NCBI GenBank assembly: GCA_963700155.1
Contig: OY969472.1
Location: 317,511-381,510 of the forward strand
Source: an uncultured bacterium
GTDB taxonomy: Bacteria; Patescibacteriota; Dojkabacteria; J137
DNA length: 64,000 nucleotides
Reading direction: 5' to 3'
This document shows positions 834 to 59,898 of the stretch, one piece after another. The notes under the pieces were generated by a model. The model saw nothing but the letters and a program-made list of their open reading frames with translations. It ran no database searches and had not been told where the DNA came from. Position 1 is the first letter of the stretch. Every line of letters starts with the position of its first letter. The translations under genes and the position numbers were made by a program.

Positions 834-2030
834 TTATTTAACAACTTCGGTAACAATTCCAGCTCCAACTGTCATTCCACCCTCTCTAATTGCAAATGAC
901 ATTTGCTTTTCGATAGCGACAGGTGTTGAAAGCTTGATATCAACTGTTACATGATCACCTGGCATTACCAATTGTGTTCCTTCTGGTAATGTAATTTCTC
1001 CTGTAACATCAGCTGTTCTAATATAGAATTGTGGTCTATATCCTGATTGGAATGCTGTATGTCTTCCACCTTCATCCTTGCTTAGAACGTAAAGTTCAGC
1101 TTTGAACTCTGTATGTGGTTTAACACTTCCTTTTGCAGCTAATACCTGACCTCTTTCAATTTCTTCTCTTTTAATACCTCTAATCAATAATCCGACATTG
1201 TCCCCTGCTTGACCTTCTTGTAGTTGTTTCTTAAACATTTCTACTCCAGTTATAGTTAGTTCTTTTGAACCTTCCATTAAACCGATTTGTTCAACAATAT
1301 CGTTTACTTTAACTTTTCCTCTGTCAATTCTACCTGTTGCAACTGTTCCTCTTCCTTCAATTGAGAATACATCTTCAACAGCCATTAAGAATGGTTGATC
1401 AATTGGTCTTTCAGGTAATGGAATCGTTTCATCCATAGCTTTTAGTAATTCAGCGATCTTCTCATCCCCATCCTTTTCACCAGTTACTCCGTATAGAGCA
1501 CTACCTACAATGAATGGAACTTTATCAACATCTTCATATCCGTATTTTTTCAATAAGTCTCTAATTTCTTCTTTAATTAATTCAAGAAGTTCTTCATCAG
1601 TATCATCTTCAAATCTATTGATGAATACAACAATGTGTTTTACACCAACCTGATTAGCAAGTAACAAATGCTCTTTTGTCTGTGGCATAGGTCCGTCAGA
1701 TGCTGAAACAACCAAAATTGCTCCATCCATTTGAGCTGCTCCAGTAATCATATTCTTAATATAGTCCTTATGACCTGGACAATCGATATGAGCATAATGT
1801 CTTGTCTCTGATTCGTATTCAACGTGACTTGATGCGACTGTAACTATTTTATTTGAACCTGCTCTTGCAATTCCTCCCTTTGCAATATCTGCATAGGATT
1901 TACCTGAGTTCTGCCATCCCTTTCTCTGGGAATAAGCAACTAAAGCTGCAGTAAGAGTAGTCTTACCATGGTCAATATGACCGAGGGTACCTACATTTAC
2001 ATGAGGCTTTGATCTAACAAACTCTGCCAT
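834..2030 (-). CDS. tuf: Elongation factor Tu
   Basis: 398 aa with [13 protein letters not shown] and the [22 protein letters not shown]-domain motifs. Confidence 0.97.
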
Positions 2031-2281
2031 GATTTTATTTTAAAAAATTAAATAAATTATGTTCGATTTAATTTGCTGCCGAATGTTACCACCTTTTCAC
2101 ACTTTCTGGAAGTGCTTTATAGTAAATTCGATCCAGCTAAGTCGCAATTATAAAATAAATACTTTTTATTCGCAACAAAATTTAGGAGAGAATTTCTCTC
2201 CCAATAAAGTAAAGAATTATATCATCAAATCAGAAGATTATGAAGTTAAAAGTAGGAAAATTCAATAATAATTTTGGTAAA

Positions 2282-2641
2282 TTATTGCTCTTGTCCAGTT
2301 GTTCTTAAAAAGTTATCTGTATACATTATAATTTCATCATATGTAAGGCTACCAACTTCTTCTATTGTTTTACCATGGCCCAACGCTAATTTTAAACCTT
2401 GCTCTAATGAATGTAGATCTTGTCTTGTAATACCAAATTGCTTACCAAAATCTAACAAGCTATCTAACAAATTATAATCTTCATCTTGATAATAAACTGA
2501 ACCGCTTAATATTAATTTCTTAGCATATGAAGTAAGAGCTGAAAGTACATCATCTTTATTTCGTAGATGAAAAATCGATATATCACCTATTTTGGGTAGT
2601 ATTATATTATTACGCATTCTCTGAGTAAATAATATCAACAA
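2282..2641 (-). CDS. Hypothetical protein
   Basis: 119-aa ORF with no motif I recognise. Confidence 0.3.
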   Translation of the reverse strand: MLILFTQRMRNNIILPKIGDISIFHLRNKDDVLSALTSYAKKLILSGSVYYQDEDYNLLDSLLDFGKQFGITRQDLHSLEQGLKLALGHGKTIEEVGSLTYDEIIMYTDNFLRTTGQEQ

Positions 2642-2656
2642 TACATAATATACCTA

Positions 2657-3745
2657 TTAGGGATTCTGTTCAAGCCATTCTTTTAATGTTAATCCGCTGT
2701 CATGTACTGCTGTGGCATTATCGATACCAATGTATCGATAATGCCACGCTTCATGAGAATATCCTGTAATTTCTTCTTTGTTTTCTAAGTAAGATTGAAT
2801 ATATCCATATTTATATGAATTTTCAAAAATCCATTTTCCTGCTTTTGTTTTTTGAAAGTTATTAGTTAATGTGAGGCCACTTTCTTGATCAATAAAATCC
2901 ACAGCAGTCCCCAGTTGGTGCTCCGAGAAGCCAGGACGAGCCGACACTTTGTCGGCCTCGTCCTGGCCAAGTTGTCTTACCCAATCAGCATATAATTTAT
3001 ATTGTTCATTATAAGATCTATATCCTGAAGCTATTACCGCATTCTTCCCCGTATCTTTCTTTAAATCACTTAACATCAAACTCAAGTAATCTGCTGCTTC
3101 TTTTCTAAGCATAATAGTTGCAGTATTTGTATAAAGCTGATAGTCAGAATATAGATTTTTTAAATCTGTTGGAGCGTAATCATTAATTAATTTATGCTCT
3201 TTATTCACTTGGGCTTTTAGGTCGTCCCCGTCAGCCGTGTATTTAAAATTAGGCCAAGGGTCTATTGTCTTCATTCCAAAAGGAAGAGAAACTGCTTGTC
3301 TATTTAATTTCAATGTTATTGGTTCATCATTACCTCCTTTATCCTTAATGTCTACATTAATAGTTGCTGATCCTATACCGATATTTTTTATTTGCAGCGC
3401 ATACCAATATTCATCGCTTTGTGTATCCTGATTAAAATCTTTTTTAACAAATGTAAGTATTGTTCGATTATTATCATCAACAAGTACCTCCTTATTGGTT
3501 CTTACAGTAACCGCAGTATCGGGCTCTAGAACTACTTCGGAAGTCGTATTTGCATCAACTTTTAAAGGAGTTGTATCAACTGGGACGTCTTCTTTAGGTT
3601 GACCACTGGCAATTATCGAATTTATTGCATTTTGTATATCTTCGAATGAATTAGTATTAAAGATTTTATCTAAGGCAAAAAGTATCCCCACGCCTACCGC
3701 AAGAATTAGAATCAATATTAAAAATAATTTAAAAAGTTTTTTCAT
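2657..3745 (-). CDS. Membrane-anchored D-alanyl-D-alanine carboxypeptidase, peptidase M15B (VanY-like)
   Basis: N-terminal TM helix. C-terminal SGYRSYNEQ...FSEHQLGTAVDF...EAWHYRY matches the M15/VanY zinc-peptidase signature. Confidence 0.75.
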   Translation of the reverse strand: MKKLFKLFLILILILAVGVGILFALDKIFNTNSFEDIQNAINSIIASGQPKEDVPVDTTPLKVDANTTSEVVLEPDTAVTVRTNKEVLVDDNNRTILTFVKKDFNQDTQSDEYWYALQIKNIGIGSATINVDIKDKGGNDEPITLKLNRQAVSLPFGMKTIDPWPNFKYTADGDDLKAQVNKEHKLINDYAPTDLKNLYSDYQLYTNTATIMLRKEAADYLSLMLSDLKKDTGKNAVIASGYRSYNEQYKLYADWVRQLGQDEADKVSARPGFSEHQLGTAVDFIDQESGLTLTNNFQKTKAGKWIFENSYKYGYIQSYLENKEEITGYSHEAWHYRYIGIDNATAVHDSGLTLKEWLEQNP

Positions 3746-3809
3746 AATTTAAGTATATCATTATAATTTCAGATATAATTTTTCAATATTTATTTATAAA
3801 ATTATTTTT

Positions 3810-4673
3810 ATGGAAAATATCGAATACTATTTATTTTTTCTTATTTTAATAACAATATCAGAAATCTTTGTAATATTATCCTTACAATTTCTGAATCGCG
3901 ATAAATTTAAATTAAATTATTTTTCTTTTAATGTTAGGAATTATTATTTAATGCTGTTCCCTCTTGCGATTAGCTTTTTTATAGTAGCAGTAATCAGACA
4001 ATCTTTTGATCTAATTGTACTATTTCTTCTTTTTTCGATTGTTGGAATAATTGGAGAAACACTTTTTAGTTATTGGTGGAAAAAATTATTCCCGAAAAAA
4101 TATTTCGTTTATAAAGTTAAAACAATTTTTAATTCCTATTCAAGTTTGTTAAATTTTATCCCCTGGGGATTAGGAGGATTTTTATTTTTAGTAATAGTAC
4201 AATTAGCAAAGTATAAATATTCAAACCCTATAATTTCAACCGAACTTACAAATAATTTTCAATTCTATACATTATTTTGGATTATATTTATATCTTCAAT
4301 TCCATTTAGCATATTATTAATGTATATATATAGAAAAATTAGACCTTTTGATAAGAATACGTTTAATATAGATTTTATGACATACTTGATTTTCTCCCTT
4401 CCTATGATATTGGCAGTTCTTGCAATTTCATTACTATATTCACCAGATTATTTTTTAATTTCGTTAGGTTTTGGAGTTATTGGGTTTGTTTTAGAATATT
4501 TATTAGGTAAAATGTCGGTTTTCTTCATCTCAAAGAAATTATGGTATTACAATTACAATACAATAGATAATAACCATACAACAATATTAAACATAATACC
4601 TTGTATGGCAGGAGGATTTTTATTTTGGACAGTTGCTTTGATATTTATAAATCTCTTCGGCATTATTTATTAA
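3810..4673 (+). CDS. Polytopic membrane protein, function unknown
   Basis: 287 aa, very hydrophobic (F/I/L-rich) with several predicted TM segments. Confidence 0.4.
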   Translation: MENIEYYLFFLILITISEIFVILSLQFLNRDKFKLNYFSFNVRNYYLMLFPLAISFFIVAVIRQSFDLIVLFLLFSIVGIIGETLFSYWWKKLFPKKYFVYKVKTIFNSYSSLLNFIPWGLGGFLFLVIVQLAKYKYSNPIISTELTNNFQFYTLFWIIFISSIPFSILLMYIYRKIRPFDKNTFNIDFMTYLIFSLPMILAVLAISLLYSPDYFLISLGFGVIGFVLEYLLGKMSVFFISKKLWYYNYNTIDNNHTTILNIIPCMAGGFLFWTVALIFINLFGIIY

Positions 4674-28112: not shown

Positions 28113-28727
28113 TTAATTGTATACTAGAGTAATAACAGAAGTAGTATTCCCATTATCTACTCCATCAGAAATTCCAACAGTTAATGTTTTACTATCTTTC
28201 TGAGCTTGAATTGAATAAGTCGATAAGTAGTTAGAATCTGTTGTAATTGTCCATCCATTTGTAGCCAATTCAGATTTATAGAATTGATAAATATCTGAAG
28301 ATTTTGCATTTGCAGATAAGACCACATCTATTTCCCCGTTTGAGACGCTAGAACCTGAAACCGATGCTCCTGTATACACTGGTACATCTGAAGGGAAACC
28401 ATCCGGTAAATTTGTACCAAATGATACATTATTATCACTTGTTGAGTTATTGTCATTCGTCATATTATCACCTGATGAGTTTTGATCTTGTTGTGCATTA
28501 GATACACTATCCTGCAATTGATTTAAAATATCGTTTGCACTTCTATTTGTAAAATAATAAACTCCTGCTCCGGCTAACCCTAAACATAGACATAAAAGTA
28601 GCACAACAACAATTATAATTATTAATGCCTTATTGCCTTTCTTCTTAGGCATATTTGAATTCGTGCTCATATCAGCCGGAGCTGGCTTATTTTCAGATTG
28701 TTCCATAGTTTTTGTTTCGTCTGCCAT
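28113..28727 (-). CDS. Single-pass membrane protein; disordered N-terminus, TM, small extracytoplasmic domain; paralog 1
   Basis: 204 aa. Topology and the C-terminal domain (…YQFYKSELATNGWTIT…) resemble the adjacent gene. Confidence 0.4.
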   Translation of the reverse strand: MADETKTMEQSENKPAPADMSTNSNMPKKKGNKALIIIIVVVLLLCLCLGLAGAGVYYFTNRSANDILNQLQDSVSNAQQDQNSSGDNMTNDNNSTSDNNVSFGTNLPDGFPSDVPVYTGASVSGSSVSNGEIDVVLSANAKSSDIYQFYKSELATNGWTITTDSNYLSTYSIQAQKDSKTLTVGISDGVDNGNTTSVITLVYN

Positions 28728-28748
28728 AAATTCTTTTTTAATAAATAA

Positions 28749-29363
28749 TTATTTTTTAATAGAATAGTTTATTAATGTTGCACTTCCAGCAGGTCCAGTA
28801 CTGTCTGAAAGTCTTAATGTAATTTTAGTACTACTGTTTGTTGCTTCAATCTCATATTCTACATTAGATTCAGAATAAACATCTTTAGTAATATCCCAGC
28901 CATTATCTTTCAGTTGATTCTTATAATAATTATAAACTACAGTTAAAGAATCAGGTGTAGTAAGTTCAGCACCTAATCCATCTCCTGTACTCACAACTAC
29001 TTCAGAACCAGGATATGTTAAGAATTCTGTCGAAGGCTCTGATGGTTGCTCATTTTGCATTTCTTCAGTTGAAGTTTCATTATTATTTTCTTCATTTGTT
29101 GAATTATGCATAACATCAACTGGACTAGATACAATCGGAGTTGAAGTTGGTTGAGTTATAGTATCTTCTTGATTATTAATACTACTTTGTGGATTATAAG
29201 AAAATACTCCTAATAATAGTAATATTATAAGTAAAATGACTGCTCCAACCATAATTAAAATTAGAATAACCACTCTTTTCTTTAATTTCTTATCATTCTC
29301 ACTAGATAAATCCATTTCTTTCTTTTGTCCTTCCATTGGTTGATTTTCTGTTGAATAATTCAT
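28749..29363 (-). CDS. Single-pass membrane protein, paralog 2
   Basis: 204 aa with the same architecture; …YNYYKNQLKDNGWDIT… aligns with paralog 1. Confidence 0.4.
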   Translation of the reverse strand: MNYSTENQPMEGQKKEMDLSSENDKKLKKRVVILILIMVGAVILLIILLLLGVFSYNPQSSINNQEDTITQPTSTPIVSSPVDVMHNSTNEENNNETSTEEMQNEQPSEPSTEFLTYPGSEVVVSTGDGLGAELTTPDSLTVVYNYYKNQLKDNGWDITKDVYSESNVEYEIEATNSSTKITLRLSDSTGPAGSATLINYSIKK

Positions 29364-38159: not shown

Positions 38160-38732
38160 TTATTCTGCCCAAGATTTTAAGATATCGATTTGAGATTTTG
38201 TTCCTTCTGGAGTTCTTAATTCTGGAGTTTCCATAATAAAATCTAGGTTTTTTAATTTTGGATGATTTAAGAACGCTTTCATAGCAGTCTCACCTATTTT
38301 TGCATCAGCAGAACCAAGATTTTCATGTCTATCCTTGTGAGAAGCTAAATCAGTTTTTGAATCATTAAAATGAACTGCTGTAATTTTATCTATCCCTAAA
38401 TATTTTTCGATTTGTTCTACTACTCCATCCAAATCATTAATTAAATCATACCCACTGGCAAACATGTGCTGAGTATCTAAACAGAAACCGATGTGCGGCT
38501 GGAATTCAGGTTTTACACCTTCGTAGATTTTGGCTAATTCTTCGAATCGATCCCCAACAATGCTACCGCTTCCAGCCGCACATTCCAGAAGCAGTTTTCT
38601 TCCTTTAGTATCGGTATTTAGATTCCCAAAAATCCAGTTTAAGCCATAACTTACTCTATCATATGCTTTCTGCTCATCAGCTTCAGTGTATTCCTTAAAG
38701 CTTCCTGTATGGAATACAACTCCATCAGCCAT
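38160..38732 (-). CDS. nfo: Endonuclease IV (AP endonuclease family 2), C-terminal fragment
   Basis: ...VVFHTGSF...IGFCLDTQHMFASGYDL...VHFNDSKTDLASHKDRHENLG...FIMETP matches Endo IV (HPGSH / CIDTCHAFAAGYDL / HLNDAK...DRHH.LG / ILET). Confidence 0.7.
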   Translation of the reverse strand: MADGVVFHTGSFKEYTEADEQKAYDRVSYGLNWIFGNLNTDTKGRKLLLECAAGSGSIVGDRFEELAKIYEGVKPEFQPHIGFCLDTQHMFASGYDLINDLDGVVEQIEKYLGIDKITAVHFNDSKTDLASHKDRHENLGSADAKIGETAMKAFLNHPKLKNLDFIMETPELRTPEGTKSQIDILKSWAE

Positions 38733-39039
38733 TAATTTTATTTAATAGATCTAAATGATTTACTAGAGATAATTTTGAGAGATGGAATTTCTGGCTGTCC
38801 GGATTCGCTAAATTTATTAAATAAATTCCATGAAAATAGACTTTTTCTACGCTTGTTCCGGCGCCTTTTCGCTGCAAATATTTCTGTTCAATTACTTCAT
38901 CTTTGAACGGCTGCGAATTCCAACGCTGTGGTGCCGCCGGATGGGTCATAACTACATTTGCACCAGCTTCTTCTCCTCGATCTAAAATATTTTGAAGTCC
39001 ACCAGCACAAGAAACAAAACAGCCAAGATAACGTGTCAT
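38725..39039 (-). CDS. nfo: Endonuclease IV, N-terminal fragment in a different frame from the C-terminal part
   Basis: MTRYLGCFVSCAGGLQNIL... fits the Endo IV start (G.HVSAAGG....). It runs into the downstream fragment with a +1 frame change near 38725..38745 (aataaaatta tract). Confidence 0.65.
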   Translation of the reverse strand: MTRYLGCFVSCAGGLQNILDRGEEAGANVVMTHPAAPQRWNSQPFKDEVIEQKYLQRKGAGTSVEKVYFHGIYLINLANPDSQKFHLSKLSLVNHLDLLNKING

Positions 39040-46154: not shown

Positions 46155-46547
46155 TTAAAATATCAAATTTTTAAGTTCACTCCAAGTTTGAGTCGCCGTT
46201 TTATCCCAATTATACTCTTTTGCAACTAATCTCCCTTTCTCAATATAACTCTTTTTTAAATTATCATCTTCTAAGAAATTTTTAATACTTCGTATGGCAC
46301 CATCCAAATTTTTTAAATTTATCAAAAAAGCTCCACCTTTTGTTACTTCTGGAGTACAGGAAGTATCAGATGCAATCGCAGGGATTCCTGCAGCCATTGC
46401 CTGGACTGGTCCGAAGTGAAATCCTTCATAGGTAGAAAGATTTATATAAGCTGCTGAATTGAACAAAAGATATTTAAGATCCTTATCAGAAATTTTGTCC
46501 GTAGTGATTATATTTTCTGAAATATTTAGTCCCTGAGCTTTTGACAA
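46155..46547 (-). CDS. Glycosyltransferase family 4 (GT-B), C-terminal fragment
   Basis: ...LKYLLFNSAAYINLSTYEGFHFGPVQAMAAGIPAIASDTSCTPEV...NWDKTA matches the GT4 C-terminal EX7E region (Y..A..FV.PS.YEGFGLP.LEAMA.G.PVI.S). Confidence 0.65.
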   Translation of the reverse strand: MSKAQGLNISENIITTDKISDKDLKYLLFNSAAYINLSTYEGFHFGPVQAMAAGIPAIASDTSCTPEVTKGGAFLINLKNLDGAIRSIKNFLEDDNLKKSYIEKGRLVAKEYNWDKTATQTWSELKNLIF

Positions 46548-47454
46548 AAATTGTCTTGACTTGCGGGGATTTTGGTAGAATAGATTTTCCTATTCCTCTG
46601 CCAAAATCCCCTCCTGTAATTACTAAAAAATCTGGAATTCTACTCCCATTCTGTAATTTAGCAAAGACTTCTAATAATTCATCAGTATTTTTATTATCTT
46701 CTAACCCTGAATCATAAAAGAAATATTTTTTATCTTGGACTTGATATTGCCCTAACACAGTTCTCGATTCACCCTGGTCAAAATCGAAATTTTTCTTATA
46801 AAATGTATCATCAATCCCTAAATATATTGATTTAACTTTTTCACCAGGTGTTCCTACATATTTTTCGATATCTAGTTTCGAAAAATTACTACATGTCAAA
46901 ACCAGGTCTGCGAGCTCGACACCTTTTATTAATTTTTTATAAAACCACTTTTTTACAACGTTTTGGATAAAACCTTTTTTTGAGAATTTAAAATCTGGAA
47001 TCGCAATGGGAATTGCATCAGGATAAAAAACTGCAGTCTTTGGTGAGTTACTAATTCTTCCAGCAAAGATTGGGGCGGTTGGTAAACCACGTTCAAAATG
47101 TAAAGCATAGAAGATATCAGGTTTTATATCTTCCAAAGCCTTCTTATACCAACCGCCCCATCTTAAAATATTCAATATTCCAGATGGTTTAGGATCTCCA
47201 AATGAATAAAATTCTATTTCATTTATTAATCTATTAATCTCTAACTGAGTAAATTCAAGCTGAACCAAATTTAATTCTAAATTGCAAAACCCTACTAAGT
47301 GAAGTTCAAAATCTTTATTATCTATAATGATTGGGATTAGTCTTTTTACGATTTCTCGACCTGTTCTTCCAATTCCTCTTCTTGAATATTGATCAAATAA
47401 GAAAGTTATATCTATCAAAATCTTCTTTCTCTCAGATGTTTTATTTGCGTTCAT
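46486..47454 (-). CDS. Glycosyltransferase family 4, N-terminal and central fragment
   Basis: The 322-aa GT-B N-terminal domain reads into ...FLVITGGDFGRGIGKSILPKSPQVKTIF, then loses frame at a T5 run near 46548..46556 and overlaps the C-terminal fragment. Confidence 0.6.
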   Translation of the reverse strand: MNANKTSERKKILIDITFLFDQYSRRGIGRTGREIVKRLIPIIIDNKDFELHLVGFCNLELNLVQLEFTQLEINRLINEIEFYSFGDPKPSGILNILRWGGWYKKALEDIKPDIFYALHFERGLPTAPIFAGRISNSPKTAVFYPDAIPIAIPDFKFSKKGFIQNVVKKWFYKKLIKGVELADLVLTCSNFSKLDIEKYVGTPGEKVKSIYLGIDDTFYKKNFDFDQGESRTVLGQYQVQDKKYFFYDSGLEDNKNTDELLEVFAKLQNGSRIPDFLVITGGDFGRGIGKSILPKSPQVKTIFVKSSGTKYFRKYNHYGQNF

Positions 47455-54027: not shown

Positions 54028-54504
54028 TTACTTAAGATGCCAATAAGCAGTAATAATACCATCATCTCCTACAACTTTTGCATAGTTTGCACAACCATTC
54101 AAAAGACTTGGATCTAAACCAGGATAACAATATGTGCCTCTCGTTAACCAACCTGAATTTGCTGCATAAACAGGCTGGTTAGTAACCGGCAATGCAACAA
54201 TATCTATTGCATTATGAGCATATGGACCACTATAACCTTGAGTCATTACAACATTACCTTTTAGAGGGAGTTGTAATGGATTACCTGATGAACCACAACC
54301 ATCGCCTGGTTTTAAATAATCACATGGATTTTTATTAAGACCATTTACATATACCTCAAAATGCAAATGAGTTCCTGAAGTTGGATTACTTGGAGATGGT
54401 AGTGGGATAACATATCCAGTATTACCCATAATACCTATTACCGTTCCAGCATAAACATAAGTATTTGAAGGAACTTGAGTAAGTATCAATTGCTGCATAG
54501 CCAA
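54028..54504 (-). CDS. M23/LytM-family peptidase domain protein with the two motif halves in swapped order (apparent circular permutation)
   Basis: The N-terminal part, ...YAGTVIGIMGNTGY...SGTHLHFEVYVNG..NP, corresponds to the canonical C-terminal half (G.TG.STGPHLHFE). After a Cys/Gly-rich linker, ...GPYAHNAIDIVALP...PVYAANSGW...GCANYAKVVGDDGIITAYWHLK* corresponds to the canonical N-terminal half (HxxxD...PVyA..G.V...GyGn.v.i.h.dG..t.YaHL). Confidence 0.6.
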   Translation of the reverse strand: MAMQQLILTQVPSNTYVYAGTVIGIMGNTGYVIPLPSPSNPTSGTHLHFEVYVNGLNKNPCDYLKPGDGCGSSGNPLQLPLKGNVVMTQGYSGPYAHNAIDIVALPVTNQPVYAANSGWLTRGTYCYPGLDPSLLNGCANYAKVVGDDGIITAYWHLK

Positions 54505-54590
54505 AATTTGCTCTGCATTTAGATGTTCTTCTGTATTTTGAAGTTCATTAATTTTTGATTTCTGATGCGTTATTAGTCTCTTGCAACTGA

Positions 54591-55316
54591 TTAATTGCTG
54601 AATAATATTCCGACAAGTTTAAGATCCACATCTTCCTTTTTCTTGTCTAAATCTGATTTTTTAACATCTTCATCTTCCTTTGATCTCTTTAGCTCGATTA
54701 ATTTTCTATCAAGTTCTTTCTTTTTATCCGATAGTTCTTGCTTTAATTGTGCTACTTTCACCATTAACTCATTAGTACTTGATTGAATTAACTCTTTATA
54801 TTGAGAATCTTTAAAGTAATTATTTATATTATCAATTACCAAAATTTTACTTCCACCTTCAATGTTTCCATACATTCGATAGTTCATATAACTATTCTTG
54901 ATTCTTAAGCTTGACTCTGTTTCAAGACCTGCAATTGTATCTTCCGTACTCTTAATCAGTTTCTGGTTATCTGAAATTTGACCGTTTAAAATTTCTATAT
55001 TTGTTTGTAACTGTTCAATTTCAAGCCTAAGCTGATCAATCTGTTTTTGATACAGCTGTGCTTCACCTTGCAAACTTGAAACTTGTGAATTATATCCATT
55101 AATAGTATAGGTATTGGAATCCAATTGAGCCTGTAGTTCTGCTTCTTGAGCTCTAATATCGTCTAACTGCTTTTGGAGTCTATCAACTTTTTCCTGAGGA
55201 GTTTCTGCAAAAACTTTATATTCTGAGAATGAAACTATTTGTGAAAAAGGCGCAGCAAATAGAGCAAACAAAAGCACAACAAGAATTAGATTTTTTATAT
55301 TGAAAAGCTTTTTCAT
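54591..55316 (-). CDS. Secreted/anchored coiled-coil protein; EnvC/NlpD-like N-terminal module upstream of the M23 gene
   Basis: 241 aa: a signal/TM sequence followed by long heptad-like Q/E/L-rich stretches (…LQKQLDDIRAQEAELQAQLD…IDQLRLEIEQLQTNIEILNGQI…). Confidence 0.5.
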   Translation of the reverse strand: MKKLFNIKNLILVVLLFALFAAPFSQIVSFSEYKVFAETPQEKVDRLQKQLDDIRAQEAELQAQLDSNTYTINGYNSQVSSLQGEAQLYQKQIDQLRLEIEQLQTNIEILNGQISDNQKLIKSTEDTIAGLETESSLRIKNSYMNYRMYGNIEGGSKILVIDNINNYFKDSQYKELIQSSTNELMVKVAQLKQELSDKKKELDRKLIELKRSKEDEDVKKSDLDKKKEDVDLKLVGILFSN

Positions 55317-55426: not shown

Positions 55427-57949
55427 ATGAATCTGGGAAACATTCCTACACTTATCTTAACAGCCTTTGTAATAGGATTTATTTTGTATATACTCTATTT
55501 GAGGTTTCTTCATTTAAAGACTACAGTTCATGAAGAGATTAAAGATAAAGTACTTCTGAAAATCTCTGTTCCTGTAAAAAATGATAAAAAAGCTTTAGCA
55601 GCAGAACAAATGTTCCAGTCATTACATGGAATTCTTAAACATGAAGAAAAATCTTTAGATCACTACTCTTTTGAAATATTTGCTGCTGCTCATGGGATTT
55701 ATTTTGTTGTTGGGTGTCAAAGAAGATATAAAACTTTTTTAGAGAACCAGATTTATGCTCAATATCCTGAAGCTCAAATTACTGAAGTTACTGACTATGC
55801 TTCAACAGGGCAAGGATATAATTATGCTTTCTCAGAACTAAGACTATCAAAAGAATTTTTTTTACCAATAAAAACATTTACAAGCTTTGAAGTTGATCCT
55901 TTAGCTTCAATTACTGGGGCTGTCGCAAACTTAGAAAATAATTATGAAGCTTGGATTCAAGTAGTAACAAGACCTGTTGATAACAAATGGCAAGATAAAG
56001 GTAAAAAATATGTAGAAACAGCTCGTCAAACAAAAACCGAATCAGGAGAATCAAAAGCATTATCTGAATCAATTTTAGAGAATCTAAAAGAAATTGAAAA
56101 AAAATCGAGTAAAGTCGGTTTTCAGTTTATTATAAGAATAGTTGTTAAGGGATTAGACCCTGTAACATCCCAACATTATCTTGAAGATATTGAAGCTGCT
56201 TTCAAACAATTCCAGACTGCACAACAAAACAGCATAATAAAACCAAAGAAAAAAAAGAAATCTATATTTAAAAAATTTAATGAAAATGTAACTAGTTTAA
56301 TTCAAGGAAAACGAGAAGGTGAAAAATTAAATATATTACAAAAATATACTGCAAGGTTTTTAGATGAAAATGAAGAAAATATTTTAAATACAGAAGAATT
56401 AGCATCAATCTACCACCTCCCTAACGAATCTGTAAAAACACCAAATATATCTTGGGCAAAATCACGAAAATTAGAGTTTCCACTGAATCTACCTATTGTT
56501 CAACCGAGAAATGATGACAAGAATATAAGACCATTCGCTTTAACAGATTATAGAAATATCCACCTCCCATTTGGTATAAAAAAAGAAGATCGAAGAAGGC
56601 ATATGTACTTATTAGGAAAAACAGGAACTGGTAAAACTACATTTTTAAAGAACATGATTGTCGGAGATATTATGGATGGAAATGGTCTAGCTGTTTTAGA
56701 TCCTCATGGAGATCTTGTAGAAGAATTATTAGATTTAATACCGGAAAATAGAATTCAAGATGTAGTATATCTTGACCCATCTGACGTTGAATGGCCAGTA
56801 GGTCTTAATATGCTTGATATTCATCCTGATGAAACTAAGGACCTACTGGCCGACGGAATAGTAAATGTTTTTAAAAAGTTTTTTGAAGATTCATGGGGTC
56901 CAAGGCTTCAATATATACTGACTAATACTTTAATAACATTGCTTGAATGCCAGAACGTCTCGCTTTTGGCGGTTCAGAGAATTTTAACAGATAGAAATTA
57001 CAGGAAATTCTTACTAAAACAAGTGAAAGATCCATTTTTATTAAAATTCTGGAATGATGAATTTGATGCAATGAGCCAAAACCCAAGAATGCTTGCTGAA
57101 GCCTTGGCACCAATCCAAAACAAAGTCGGTCGATTTTTGAATTCAACAATGGTAAGAAATATGCTTGGACAGATAAAGTCCTCAATTAGTCTGCAGGATA
57201 TTATGAATCAACAAAAAATATTATTAGTAAATCTATCTCAAGGTAAAATCGGTGAAGAAAACTCTTCTCTTTTAGGAGCTATGATTGTAACAAGAATGTA
57301 TTCAAACGCAATGCAGAGAGCAAAGATTCCTGTAGAGCAAAGAAAAGACTTTTATTTGTATGTTGATGAGTTCCAAAACTTTGCGACTGATTCGTTTATA
57401 AAAATACTTTCAGAAGCTAGAAAATATGGACTTAACCTTATCGTTACTCACCAATATATCGACCAGATAGATGAAGGAATTCAGGATGCAATCTTCGGGA
57501 ATGTTGGTACATTAATGAATTATGTTGTCGGTCAAAAAGACTCTTTAAGATTAGAGCAGGAATACACTCCACATTTAACTTCTGAAGATTTGATAAATCT
57601 TGATAGATATAGATTAGCTATGAAGATGACAATTGAGGGAGCCCAGACTCCTCCATTTACTGCGATTGCATTAAAGCCTAGCTATTATGAATATAAATTA
57701 AAAGAGCAAATCAAGAACTATGGAAGAGAAACATATGCAAAATCAAGAGCGGAAGTTGAATTAAAGTTAAATAAGTGGGCAAGCCAAGTTTATGATAAAA
57801 AAGGTAATTTAATGCAGCCTGGTCAAAAATATGATAATTTTGAGCAGAAAAAAGAAAATAGAGACGAGAATAAAGCAGAAGGTAAAGAAAATACAAATCA
57901 AATTACTACAAGAGTAACTTCTCAAACAAACAATCCAGAGAAAAAATGA
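55427..57949 (+). CDS. Membrane-anchored P-loop NTPase of the TraD/VirD4/TrwB (type IV coupling protein-like; FtsK-HerA superfamily) type
   Basis: 840 aa with an N-terminal TM. Walker A LLGKTGTGKTTFLKNMI, then ...AVLDPHGDL...; Walker B ...DFYLYVDEFQNF.... The layout resembles a T4SS DNA-binding/coupling ATPase. Confidence 0.5.
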   Translation: MNLGNIPTLILTAFVIGFILYILYLRFLHLKTTVHEEIKDKVLLKISVPVKNDKKALAAEQMFQSLHGILKHEEKSLDHYSFEIFAAAHGIYFVVGCQRRYKTFLENQIYAQYPEAQITEVTDYASTGQGYNYAFSELRLSKEFFLPIKTFTSFEVDPLASITGAVANLENNYEAWIQVVTRPVDNKWQDKGKKYVETARQTKTESGESKALSESILENLKEIEKKSSKVGFQFIIRIVVKGLDPVTSQHYLEDIEAAFKQFQTAQQNSIIKPKKKKKSIFKKFNENVTSLIQGKREGEKLNILQKYTARFLDENEENILNTEELASIYHLPNESVKTPNISWAKSRKLEFPLNLPIVQPRNDDKNIRPFALTDYRNIHLPFGIKKEDRRRHMYLLGKTGTGKTTFLKNMIVGDIMDGNGLAVLDPHGDLVEELLDLIPENRIQDVVYLDPSDVEWPVGLNMLDIHPDETKDLLADGIVNVFKKFFEDSWGPRLQYILTNTLITLLECQNVSLLAVQRILTDRNYRKFLLKQVKDPFLLKFWNDEFDAMSQNPRMLAEALAPIQNKVGRFLNSTMVRNMLGQIKSSISLQDIMNQQKILLVNLSQGKIGEENSSLLGAMIVTRMYSNAMQRAKIPVEQRKDFYLYVDEFQNFATDSFIKILSEARKYGLNLIVTHQYIDQIDEGIQDAIFGNVGTLMNYVVGQKDSLRLEQEYTPHLTSEDLINLDRYRLAMKMTIEGAQTPPFTAIALKPSYYEYKLKEQIKNYGRETYAKSRAEVELKLNKWASQVYDKKGNLMQPGQKYDNFEQKKENRDENKAEGKENTNQITTRVTSQTNNPEKK

Positions 57950-57961
57950 TGAAGCTAATAA

Positions 57962-58153
57962 ATCAAATACCTTGAATTAGTGGGACAATGGGCGGCGCTT
58001 TGCGCCGCCCAGAGAGAGTTTGATCACCTCCAGTCAACGGTTTCCCTTTGGAATTCGGATTCGAAGGTACCCCCTGTTTAGGTTAGGTACGACTCTAATT
58101 CCTCCTCTCCAAGCTCTCCCGCGACCTTTGGTGTAGGACTTTTTTTGTGCCAT
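57962..58153 (-). CDS. Small, highly basic protein (63 aa from the ATG at 58153; an in-frame upstream ATG at 58195 would give 77 aa). It is unannotated and not in the provided ORF track
   Basis: My own translation: MAQKKSYTKGRGRAWRGGIRVVPNPKQGVPSNPNSKGKPLTGGDQTLSGRRKAPPIVPLIQGI*. A strong SD (AGGGAG) lies 7 nt upstream of the ATG. The ORF ends within or just after the GC hairpin at 57989..58009. Confidence 0.3.
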
Positions 58154-58341
58154 TTCAAACTCCCTAAAAATTTTTGCCCAGCTCTCATTCGGCATGGGTT
58201 AAATCGAATTTTATCACAAATAAAAATATGTTACCAATATATAATGACTAAACCTAGATTTTTATTAAAATATCTTATATAATTCATAATCGAAAATTTA
58301 GTTTCTCTCTTATGCTTTAACGCTAAGAGAGAGGGGGTATT

Positions 58342-58476
58342 ATGAAATCCAGATTCAAAAAAAAAGAATTCGGTCTTTGTTCCAAGCGCAAAAAAAAGAA
58401 ACAGGGAAGTAATGAGGACCGCCGTACCGACAACAAGATACGGCGTGTTAAAAAAGAAAAAGAAACTACAACCTAA
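58342..58476 (+). CDS. Small, very basic 44-aa protein, unannotated
   Basis: MKSRFKKKEFGLCSKRKKKKQGSNEDRRTDNKIRRVKKEKETTT*. A GAGGGGG SD lies 6 nt upstream and overlaps the 3' arm of a 5'UTR hairpin (58306..58338). A GC-rich terminator (58488..58509) follows immediately after the stop. Confidence 0.3.
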   Translation: MKSRFKKKEFGLCSKRKKKKQGSNEDRRTDNKIRRVKKEKETTT

Positions 58477-58587
58477 TATTTTCGATCAGGGGCGGGCGTG
58501 CCCGCCCCTGTTAAACCGAAACTTACCATCTCGTAAACTTCATAAATTTATTCTAGAATATTTGAAATTATTTATAAGCAAAAAGAT

Positions 58588-59193
58588 ATGCTTCAAAAAC
58601 TACTTCCACTTAATTTGAAGATGAATAAATTAATAAAATTCATGATTTATTCTGATCTAATTTTTCAGACTGGCTGGGGTTTAATTAATCCAATTATTGC
58701 AGTGTTTATAACAGACCAAATTACAGGAGCTGATGTTGCCGTTGTTGGTATTGCAGCTACAATTTATCTTGTTGTGCAAAGCATCATTCAAATTCCTATT
58801 TCTCATTATATTGACTCAAAAAAAGGAGAATTTGATGACTATAGAATTATGATTGTCGGAAGTGTTCTTTTAGCAAGTTCAGCGTTCTTATATATTTTTG
58901 CTAAAGAAATCTGGCATGTTTATTTAATACAGATTGTAGGTGGTATTGGGGCAGGATTATCTTATCCAGGATGGGTTGCCATCTTTACAAGACATATTGA
59001 CAAAAATCGTGAGGGATTTGAATGGAGTTTTTATTCAACACTTGTTAACTTAGGAACAGCTTTAACAGCAGCTATTGGAGGATTAGCTGCTAATGCTTTT
59101 GGATATAAATATTTATTTTTAACAGTTGGTATACTTTCAATAATCGGCACCTTATTTCTGTTTTTTATACATTCAAGCCTAAAGAAGAAATAA
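58588..59193 (+). CDS. Polytopic membrane protein, about 6 TM, possibly a half-size MFS-like permease
   Basis: 201 aa, hydrophobic. Confidence 0.35.
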   Translation: MLQKLLPLNLKMNKLIKFMIYSDLIFQTGWGLINPIIAVFITDQITGADVAVVGIAATIYLVVQSIIQIPISHYIDSKKGEFDDYRIMIVGSVLLASSAFLYIFAKEIWHVYLIQIVGGIGAGLSYPGWVAIFTRHIDKNREGFEWSFYSTLVNLGTALTAAIGGLAANAFGYKYLFLTVGILSIIGTLFLFFIHSSLKKK

Positions 59194-59898
59194 TTAACTT
59201 TCAGGTATTAAAGTTAATACTTCACATTCAGCAATATTTGCTAAAGCATCTGAATCTGATAAAGTTCCTGCAATTCCTGCATCATTATGCATAGGTATTG
59301 CTATCTTTGGTTTTATAGTATTTATAGCTTCTGCTGCTTCTTGAACACTCATAACATAAGTTCCAGAAACCGGAATCATTATTATATCTACTTTCATTGG
59401 TTCTTTCATTTCATTAATAAAGTCTGTGTCACCAGTATGATAGATAAATACATTCTCATCATCTGCAATATTTACAAATTCTAAAAGAAAACCTAATCCA
59501 TTATTTTCTTTTGGATGGAAAGGTTTTCCTGGTTCTTGGAATTTATTGATATTGTAAGCGGGTTTGGAATGGATTTTAAAGTTTTCAAAGTCTTTAGTTT
59601 CATTTGGATTCATCTCAATAAAATTTGGAATATTCATTCCTTCCAAACCCGCTTTAACTAGTTCATTTCCTATAACAACTGTTTCAACTTTTAAGATTTT
59701 TTGAAGGCTGACTTTATCTAAGTGATCGAAATGTTCATGAGAAATTAAAATAAAGTCAGCCTTTGGTTGCTCATCAGGCAGCTTATAAGGATCAATATAA
59801 ATATTTTTATAATCTTGCATTGTACTATCTGTTGGATAATCTATCCTAAATCCATCATGCAAATATTTCGTTATTTTTAAATTTTTATATTCATACAT
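59194..59898 (-). CDS. Metallo-beta-lactamase-fold hydrolase
   Basis: ...FILISHEHFDHLD... is the HxHxDH zinc-binding motif. Confidence 0.7.
   Translation of the reverse strand: MYEYKNLKITKYLHDGFRIDYPTDSTMQDYKNIYIDPYKLPDEQPKADFILISHEHFDHLDKVSLQKILKVETVVIGNELVKAGLEGMNIPNFIEMNPNETKDFENFKIHSKPAYNINKFQEPGKPFHPKENNGLGFLLEFVNIADDENVFIYHTGDTDFINEMKEPMKVDIIMIPVSGTYVMSVQEAAEAINTIKPKIAIPMHNDAGIAGTLSDSDALANIAECEVLTLIPES

Follow-up and report, generated by a model that had tools for sequence, protein, structure and literature searches.

The M23/LytM peptidase domain encoded by ORF B, on the minus strand of the 64-kb window (the whole stretch of DNA analysed here), is, judged by motif order and profile alignment, circularly permuted, precisely and with a conserved order. 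The locus probably represents the ancestral gene for an extracytoplasmic, coiled-coil-tethered peptidoglycan endopeptidase with a circularly permuted, zinc-dependent M23/LytM domain.

The two halves of the M23 domain of ORF B are swapped

ORF B encodes 158 amino acids when read from a TTG and 156 when read from the ATG at 54498; the deposited record calls the 156-aa form, P0001, on a contig of 1,140,724 bp. Residues are numbered here from ATG 54498, except where TTG numbering is indicated. The features of ORF B are as follows.

54028..54504 (-): ORF B; last turns of the second coiled-coil helix, complete permuted M23 domain and stop codon
54340..54480 (-): canonical M23 C-terminal half, placed first; aa 7-53, VxxGxxIGxxGNTG...GTHLHFEV
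54361-54369 (-): HxH motif (H44-L-H46), in the first-placed C-terminal half
54322-54324 (-): Cys59, one codon upstream of the new linker; Cys68 lies inside the linker
54280..54321 (-): new linker; aa 60-73, DYLKPGDGCGSSGN, joining the canonical C-terminus to the canonical N-terminus
54031..54279 (-): canonical M23 N-terminal half, placed last; aa 74-156
54202-54216 (-): HxxxD motif (H95-NAI-D99), in the last-placed N-terminal half
54037-54045 (-): Y152-W-H154, in the last-placed N-terminal half

ORF B matches the Pfam profile PF01551 (Peptidase_M23) in two stretches and scores 40 bits, where the cut-off is 28.7. In the better of the two, aa 10-60 of the 158-aa ORF (TTG numbering) correspond to profile positions 56-96 of 96, indicating that the C-terminal part of the profile stands first in ORF B. 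With a home-built HMM made from 26 canonical M23 domains (145 positions), aa 7-53 aligned to HMM positions 88-134 (64.4 bits) and aa 74-156 aligned to HMM positions 5-86 (40.1 bits). When ORF B was joined to a copy of itself, there was a single match across the junction, with HMM positions 5-134 aligned to aa 74-209 (110.8 bits, E 1e-34). This permutation-aware alignment to an M23 profile, the two PF01551 stretches and the canonical HMM all bear out an earlier note on this DNA, which had proposed that the halves of the domain are reversed and had called for such an alignment. HMM position 86 falls on the final residues of the protein (..YWHLK, then the stop codon) and HMM position 88 falls on aa 7, indicating that the breakpoint lies exactly at the canonical mid-domain junction, where the note had also placed the end of the protein. 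The protein stops one residue after the HL of YWHL.

The motif order in canonical M23 domains is HxxxD ... YxHL ... HxH, whereas ORF B has HxH ... HxxxD ... YxHL. As the note had claimed, all catalytic-site residues are present (H44, H46, H95, D99, Y152 and H154). In LytM, H210, D214 and H293 are zinc ligands, and H260 and H291 are catalytic residues; we assume that these established roles carry over to the permuted domain. On that assumption, the zinc-ligand positions are filled by H95 and D99 of HxxxD together with H46, the second histidine of HxH, and the catalytic histidine positions are filled by H44, the first histidine of HxH, and H154 of YxHL, with Y152. The stretch between the two halves, aa 60-73, has no counterpart in the canonical M23 HMM. 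A linker of about 40 aa had been proposed at this point; a new, Cys-bearing linker does exist, but it is only ~14 aa long, and the remainder of the supposed linker consists of two canonical strands, the last (VYVNGLNKNPC) and the first (PLQLPLKGNVVMTQGY).

The swapped order is conserved in a family of proteins

Homologues of ORF B were sought by a word-indexed search and by HMMER, run exhaustively over 1.84 billion cluster representatives. The word-indexed search matched ORF B itself and canonical M23 proteins, the halves of the latter being in the opposite order. The permuted family surfaced only in the exhaustive search, which gave 257 matches at E <= 1e-3. Among the 150 HMMER matches listed, 43 (including the window protein) are collinear with the whole query, in one stretch, at the C-terminus. 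These clusters, at least 43 in number, are mostly 387-456 aa long, with a few contig-end fragments. HxH precedes HxxxD in every one of the 43, and most end 0-4 residues past a YWHL-type motif ([YFLIR]H[LMIVF]), while a few have tails of up to ~15 residues.

Forty permuted domains from the HMMER matches were aligned (alignment A1). H44, H46, H95, D99, Y152 and H154 are invariant (40/40), as are G18, G25, G28, P58 and G116; at C59, beside the new linker, and C68, inside it, conservation is 90% or more. Swapped halves relative to the canonical M23 HMM were observed for all 40 family members, and a junction-spanning, full-length match to the self-joined sequence was observed for 37 of the 40. A search of all PDB sequences with the A1 profile matched 38 M23/LytM entries. 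Those matching both A1 halves do so, in all cases, in swapped order with a 3-residue junction, and the others match one half; none of the 38 is collinear with A1 over the whole domain. A long lysostaphin match was considered as a possible collinear case and rejected, since it is the C-half continuing into the linker.

One sub-clade (P0168, from L012 1411-2055; P0170; P0165) has the same permuted M23 domain without the coiled coil. In its members a signal peptide is present, the linker is Pro-rich or of low complexity, and the NPC...C cysteine pair is missing; the record of the short member P0168 is labelled Candidatus Nanoarchaeia. A further protein, P0014 (257 aa, on a 914-bp contig), has an M23 C-half, then a divergent N-half-like stretch, then a coiled coil. 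It is unlike the permuted family and could be a piece of a multidomain, phage-type lysin.

The coiled coil and the M23 domain belong to one gene split by two insertions

The earlier note had described an EnvC-like coiled-coil protein encoded beside ORF B. The coiled coil is present, but it is not a separate neighbour: ORF A, which encodes it, is the N-terminal two-thirds of the same gene. The features of the split are as follows.

54591..55316 (-): ORF A; 241 aa, N-terminal hydrophobic signal/anchor segment and coiled coil
54611..54614 (-): first frameshift site; gtcg, four bases where relatives have one codon (Ala in P0019, 'LAEYY')
54554..54613 (-): twenty bridging codons, in the third frame only; SEYYSAINQLQETNNASEIK, homologous to P0019 residues ~227-246
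54552..54556 (-): second frameshift site; run of five A, with one extra A

A tblastn search with P0019, an intact homologue of 424 aa, aligned residues 2-227 to 55310..54612 with 56% identity; P0019 also aligns to ORF B, with 52% identity. ORF A corresponds to residues 1 to ~226 of an ancestral protein of ~428 aa, followed by a short out-of-frame tail; in three-frame translation it ends ...KKEDVDLKL, then VGILFSN and the stop codon. The first frameshift site has one base too many and lies outside any homopolymer. At the second site, dropping one A from the A5 run restores ...EIK-INELQ... in frame with the M23 domain, and beyond it the ORF B frame reads INELQNTEEHLNAEQILAMQQLIL.... The frameshift-corrected composite (428 aa) is collinear with P0019 and gap-free across the bridging stretch, with 56% identity. 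From this reconstruction of the reading frames, we conclude that 54028..55316 (-) is one ancestral gene, interrupted here by two independent 1-nt insertions ~60 nt apart.

UGA recoding (genetic code 25) was rejected as an explanation of the split, since the shifted frames all close with TAA stops. Programmed frameshifting is unlikely: two separate +1 events would be involved, the first without a slippery context, and the ORF is uninterrupted in every relative examined.

ORF B has neither a hydrophobic leader or signal peptide nor a clear Shine-Dalgarno (ribosome-binding) sequence. Being without an export signal, ORF B as a separate product would fail to reach the cell wall. Across the 156 codons of the permuted domain in the window, the catalytic residues are unchanged and there are no internal stops. 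There was no second copy of the permuted M23 gene from the window's contig among the homology-search matches.

Related loci and linkage to ftsE and ftsX

Related loci (L001-L021) were collected from scans of public genomes and metagenomes, with the composite alignment A2 as query, and from look-ups of single family proteins; the metagenome scan contributed 4 loci. L012 and L013 carry the same gene, so the 21 loci comprise 20 distinct ones. The source MAGs are labelled Candidatus Saccharibacteria, Dojkabacteria, Doudnabacteria or 'Patescibacteria group'. In every related locus a single intact ORF aligns collinearly with the permuted profile at its C-terminus and ends no more than 8 residues from the profile end. 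The order of the halves, which the note had proposed looking for in orthologs, is thus found in at least 43 clusters among the matches listed and in 20 distinct loci. L001, on a 1.19-Mb chromosome, is syntenic with the window: it has the lactamase_B-like gene, the coiled-coil/permuted-M23 gene (encoding a protein of 419 aa that ends YWHLKAF) and the convergent SufS gene. This synteny, including SufS, indicates that the abrupt end of the gene against SufS is ancestral, with no truncation.

Of the 18 related loci that have a coiled coil, 8 carry ftsX immediately upstream of the permuted M23 gene and in the same orientation. L008, L010, L015, L020 and L021 have a gene for an FtsE-like ABC ATPase, then ftsX, then the permuted M23 gene, all on one strand; the gene order at L015 is prfB, ftsE, ftsX, permuted M23 gene. 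At L008, L010 and L015 the FtsX protein has matches to PF02687 as well as PF18075. L009 and L017 have a partial ftsX at the contig end, and L014 has a fragmented ftsX. Neither ftsX nor an ABC ATPase with an LSGG signature was found in the 64-kb window, and the ftsEX linkage is absent from the closest clade, L001-L007. A study of Saccharimonadia found FtsX and FtsE genes in most bins (59 and 57 bins, respectively; PMC12592800).

At L014, ftsE and ftsX (1796-3954) are broken into several short ORFs upstream of an intact permuted M23 gene; frameshifts, an alternative genetic code or decay could explain the breakage. Lamin-tail (PF00932, LTD) proteins are encoded repeatedly on the downstream side of the permuted M23 gene: next to it in L010 (3945-5648) and L011 (1432-2409), and ~2 kb further on in L014 (7434-8918). 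The LTD proteins may be functional partners of the permuted M23 protein.

Predicted structure and architecture

AlphaFold2, run on the permuted domain with alignment A1, predicts a single compact, beta-rich domain (mean pLDDT 93.1, pTM 0.88), in which the linker block has pLDDT values of 89-97. A Foldseek search of the model against the PDB gave nothing significant; the half-length structure matches of the permuted domain are exclusively M23 structures. The AlphaFold2 model of intact P0019 (pLDDT 79.9) has a hydrophobic helix at residues 5-19 and helices at 33-143 and 153-269, followed by the domain; the pTM of 0.44 indicates that the inter-domain orientation is uncertain. An export/anchor segment and then a long antiparallel helical hairpin are thus found ahead of the catalytic domain. 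From the residue invariance, the exact breakpoint and the high pTM of the domain model, we infer that the two halves rebuild a working zinc site. The near-invariant cysteine pair of the linker and further cysteine pairs in the N-half insert would fit an extracytoplasmic, disulfide-stabilised domain.

Other genes in the window

Several other genes in the window look broken. A GT4 glycosyltransferase gene at 46155-47454 (-) has an apparent frameshift split at ~46,486-46,547, near runs of T5 and A4; ORF 46486-47454 contains the Glyco_transf_4 N-domain, and the overlapping ORF 46155-46547 matches Glycos_transf_1 positions 65-170. In an AP_endonuc_2 gene at 38160-39039 (-), ORF 38160-38732 matches only positions 85-248 of 249 (a xylose-isomerase-like TIM barrel); a 104-aa ORF without a Pfam match, at 38725-39039 (-), is probably the detached N-terminal part of this gene, with the split at ~38,725. 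Half of an MFS transporter is encoded at 58588-59193 (+), its 201 aa matching MFS_1 positions 7-174 of 347. This ORF runs into a convergent lactamase_B-like gene at 59194-59898, indicating that the MFS gene is truncated.

An ATPase of 840 aa that is similar to a type IV coupling protein (TrwB_AAD_bind, DUF87, TraG-D_C) and the MFS fragment together occupy 55427-59193, a block that separates the coiled-coil/M23 gene from the lactamase_B-like gene. The M23 and lactamase_B-like genes are adjacent in L001, suggesting an insertion of ~3.9 kb in the window, which is possibly the remnant of a mobile element. At 28113-29363 (-), two adjacent ORFs of 204 aa each, on the same strand and without a Pfam match, may be a tandem duplicate.

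Alternative explanations

The swapped order might reflect an assembly artefact, e.g. a collapsed or mis-joined tandem M23 duplication, a concern raised in the earlier note. This is an a priori possibility only, to which the other indel-type defects in the window can be added. A collapsed tandem repeat, however, would yield the canonical order rather than the permuted one, and collapse is ruled out because the swapped order is conserved across independent assemblies: the order, the breakpoint and the C-terminal end are common to the collinear clusters and to the distinct loci described above, which come from independent MAGs and metagenomes that include the 1.19-Mb chromosome. The convergent SufS gene also lies directly next to the permuted gene in both the window and L001. 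We therefore regard an artefact of this kind as exceedingly improbable. Another reading is that the permuted domain is a non-catalytic regulator that, like the degenerate LytM domains of EnvC and NlpD, activates amidases instead of cutting peptidoglycan. The combination of a coiled coil with a LytM-type domain and the linkage to ftsEX do resemble EnvC. EnvC-type domains are without metal ligands, yet the five active-site residues H95, D99, H46, H44 and H154 are retained in all 40 aligned members, and the residue loss typical of EnvC/NlpD-type degenerate LytM activators is not seen. A purely regulatory role is thus unlikely, and a catalytic endopeptidase remains the reading that we prefer.

The state of the copy in the window is a separate matter: it is either a recent pseudogene or a carrier of consensus indel errors. 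An arrangement of two functional genes, for a secreted coiled-coil protein and a separately translated M23 protein, would agree with the fact that both ORFs are open and are called as separate proteins in the deposited record; it is very unlikely given the single ORF in all relatives examined, the 20 inter-ORF codons conserved in the third frame, and the missing export signal of ORF B. A true recent pseudogene, in which the enzyme was lost through two real 1-nt insertions while the family is otherwise functional, is quite possible, if somewhat short of an even chance. The two +1 insertions are independent and the first lies outside any homopolymer; ORF B lacks a signal peptide and an evident ribosome-binding site; and long ORFs elsewhere in the window are intact, indicating that the consensus is not generally poor. 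On the other hand, in 156 codons the domain has gained neither a stop codon nor a catalytic-residue substitution, and the gene is kept across classes of Patescibacteria, with no second copy from the same contig found. In the same 64 kb, the GT4 glycosyltransferase and AP_endonuc_2 genes, at least, also look split, and the MFS gene is truncated; several broken genes would also fit indel errors in the long-read consensus of a 1.14-Mb single contig.

Proposed function and origin

The ancestral chain of ~428 residues would begin with the signal/anchor segment, followed by two helices of ~110 residues each, and would lead into the catalytic domain through the strand found after YxHL in canonical M23 domains. 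It would then pass through GxTG...HxH to the canonical C-terminus, cross the ~14-residue Cys-containing linker to the canonical N-terminus, and continue through HxxxD, finishing right after the catalytic histidine of YWHL. The permuted enzyme is predicted to cleave peptidoglycan cross-links, peptidase activity being suggested by three zinc ligands and two catalytic histidines that never vary. The coiled coil is predicted to dock on the extracellular domain of FtsX, and FtsE would then switch the hydrolase through ATP hydrolysis while the cell divides or its wall grows, as in the case of EnvC, PcsB, CwlO and RipC. Our preferred reading is that the family corresponds, in Patescibacteria, to these FtsEX-controlled coiled-coil wall hydrolases.

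The permutation could have arisen from a tandem duplication of the domain followed by loss of the outer half-domains, which is the classical route to circular permutants. Tandem M23-M23 proteins exist (P0138 and P0107); no direct intermediate was found among the homologues recovered. More speculatively, the permutation may be adaptive rather than neutral, and the family may be the principal division hydrolase across much of Patescibacteria, a proposal that we consider doubtful. Were it correct, the chain would no longer enter on the far side of the domain but at the strand beside the catalytic histidine of YxHL, placing the last coiled-coil helix and the free C-terminus at the active-site cleft; FtsEX-driven motion of the coiled coil could then gate catalysis directly, unlike the 'restraining arm' of EnvC.

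Novelty and significance

In agreement with the earlier note, whose author knew of no described permuted LytM domain, a literature search found no report of a permuted M23/LytM domain, although an earlier description elsewhere is possible; where permuted wall hydrolases were mentioned, they belonged to NlpC/P60 families. No NCBIfam model covers the permuted M23 family, Pfam detects only the C-half of the M23 domain in intact relatives, and the source annotations are 'hypothetical protein', 'peptidoglycan hydrolase CwlO-like protein' and 'peptidoglycan DD-metalloendopeptidase family protein'. Together with the outcome of the Foldseek search, these half-domain matches and 'hypothetical' or 'CwlO-like' labels amount to an annotation blind spot.

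Few cell-wall hydrolases have been studied as closely as the M23/LytM enzymes, which include lysostaphin, LytM, EnvC and ShyA and which are being engineered as antibacterials. A permutant that occurs naturally and is conserved marks where the M23 fold tolerates new termini and a new connection, and can serve to test how regulation depends on the way in which a coiled coil is joined to the catalytic domain. The family is also likely to supply the FtsEX-coupled hydrolase in a very large group of ultra-small bacteria that have not been cultivated and whose division is poorly understood. We expect a permuted M23 domain to be moderately to clearly surprising to specialists in cell-wall hydrolases and in the evolution of protein folds, and to give a concrete handle on division in Patescibacteria.

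Comparison with known systems

The permuted domain has HxxxD, YxHL and GxTG...HxH in common with canonical M23/LytM domains (PF01551; LytM, lysostaphin, Csd3 and ShyA); each of its halves gives a significant HMM match, and its predicted fold is likewise beta-rich. It differs from them in its swapped half-domains, its new termini after YxHL and its ~14-aa Cys-bearing linker. Firmicutes-type proteins that combine a coiled coil with a canonical M23 domain (P0078, P0079, P0106 and P0109) are of similar length (409-420 aa), with an N-terminal coiled coil, a C-terminal M23 domain and, in three of the four, a hydrophobic leader. All four share with the window protein and P0019 an insertion before HxH, 'TGNVxPxPTxxNPxxGxHLHFEV' (also 'TGxVxPxPxxxNPxxGxHLHFEV'). 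By contrast, their M23 domain is in canonical order and ends ...NPxxYL. Plausibly, these proteins are related to the unpermuted ancestor.

EnvC of E. coli and V. cholerae is an FtsEX-bound amidase activator whose LytM domain has the canonical order and is catalytically dead, whereas the domain of the permuted family has swapped halves and keeps every catalytic residue. FtsEX also controls the coiled-coil hydrolases PcsB, CwlO and RipC of Gram-positive bacteria and mycobacteria; these have a CHAP or NlpC/P60 cysteine peptidase as catalytic domain, whereas that of the permuted family is M23. Circularly permuted NlpC/P60 families (YaeF/poxvirus G6R and LRAT-like) are a case of natural permutation of a cell-wall hydrolase domain (PMC6403190). 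They provide a precedent for the permuted M23 domain, to which their fold and papain-like Cys/His chemistry are unrelated.
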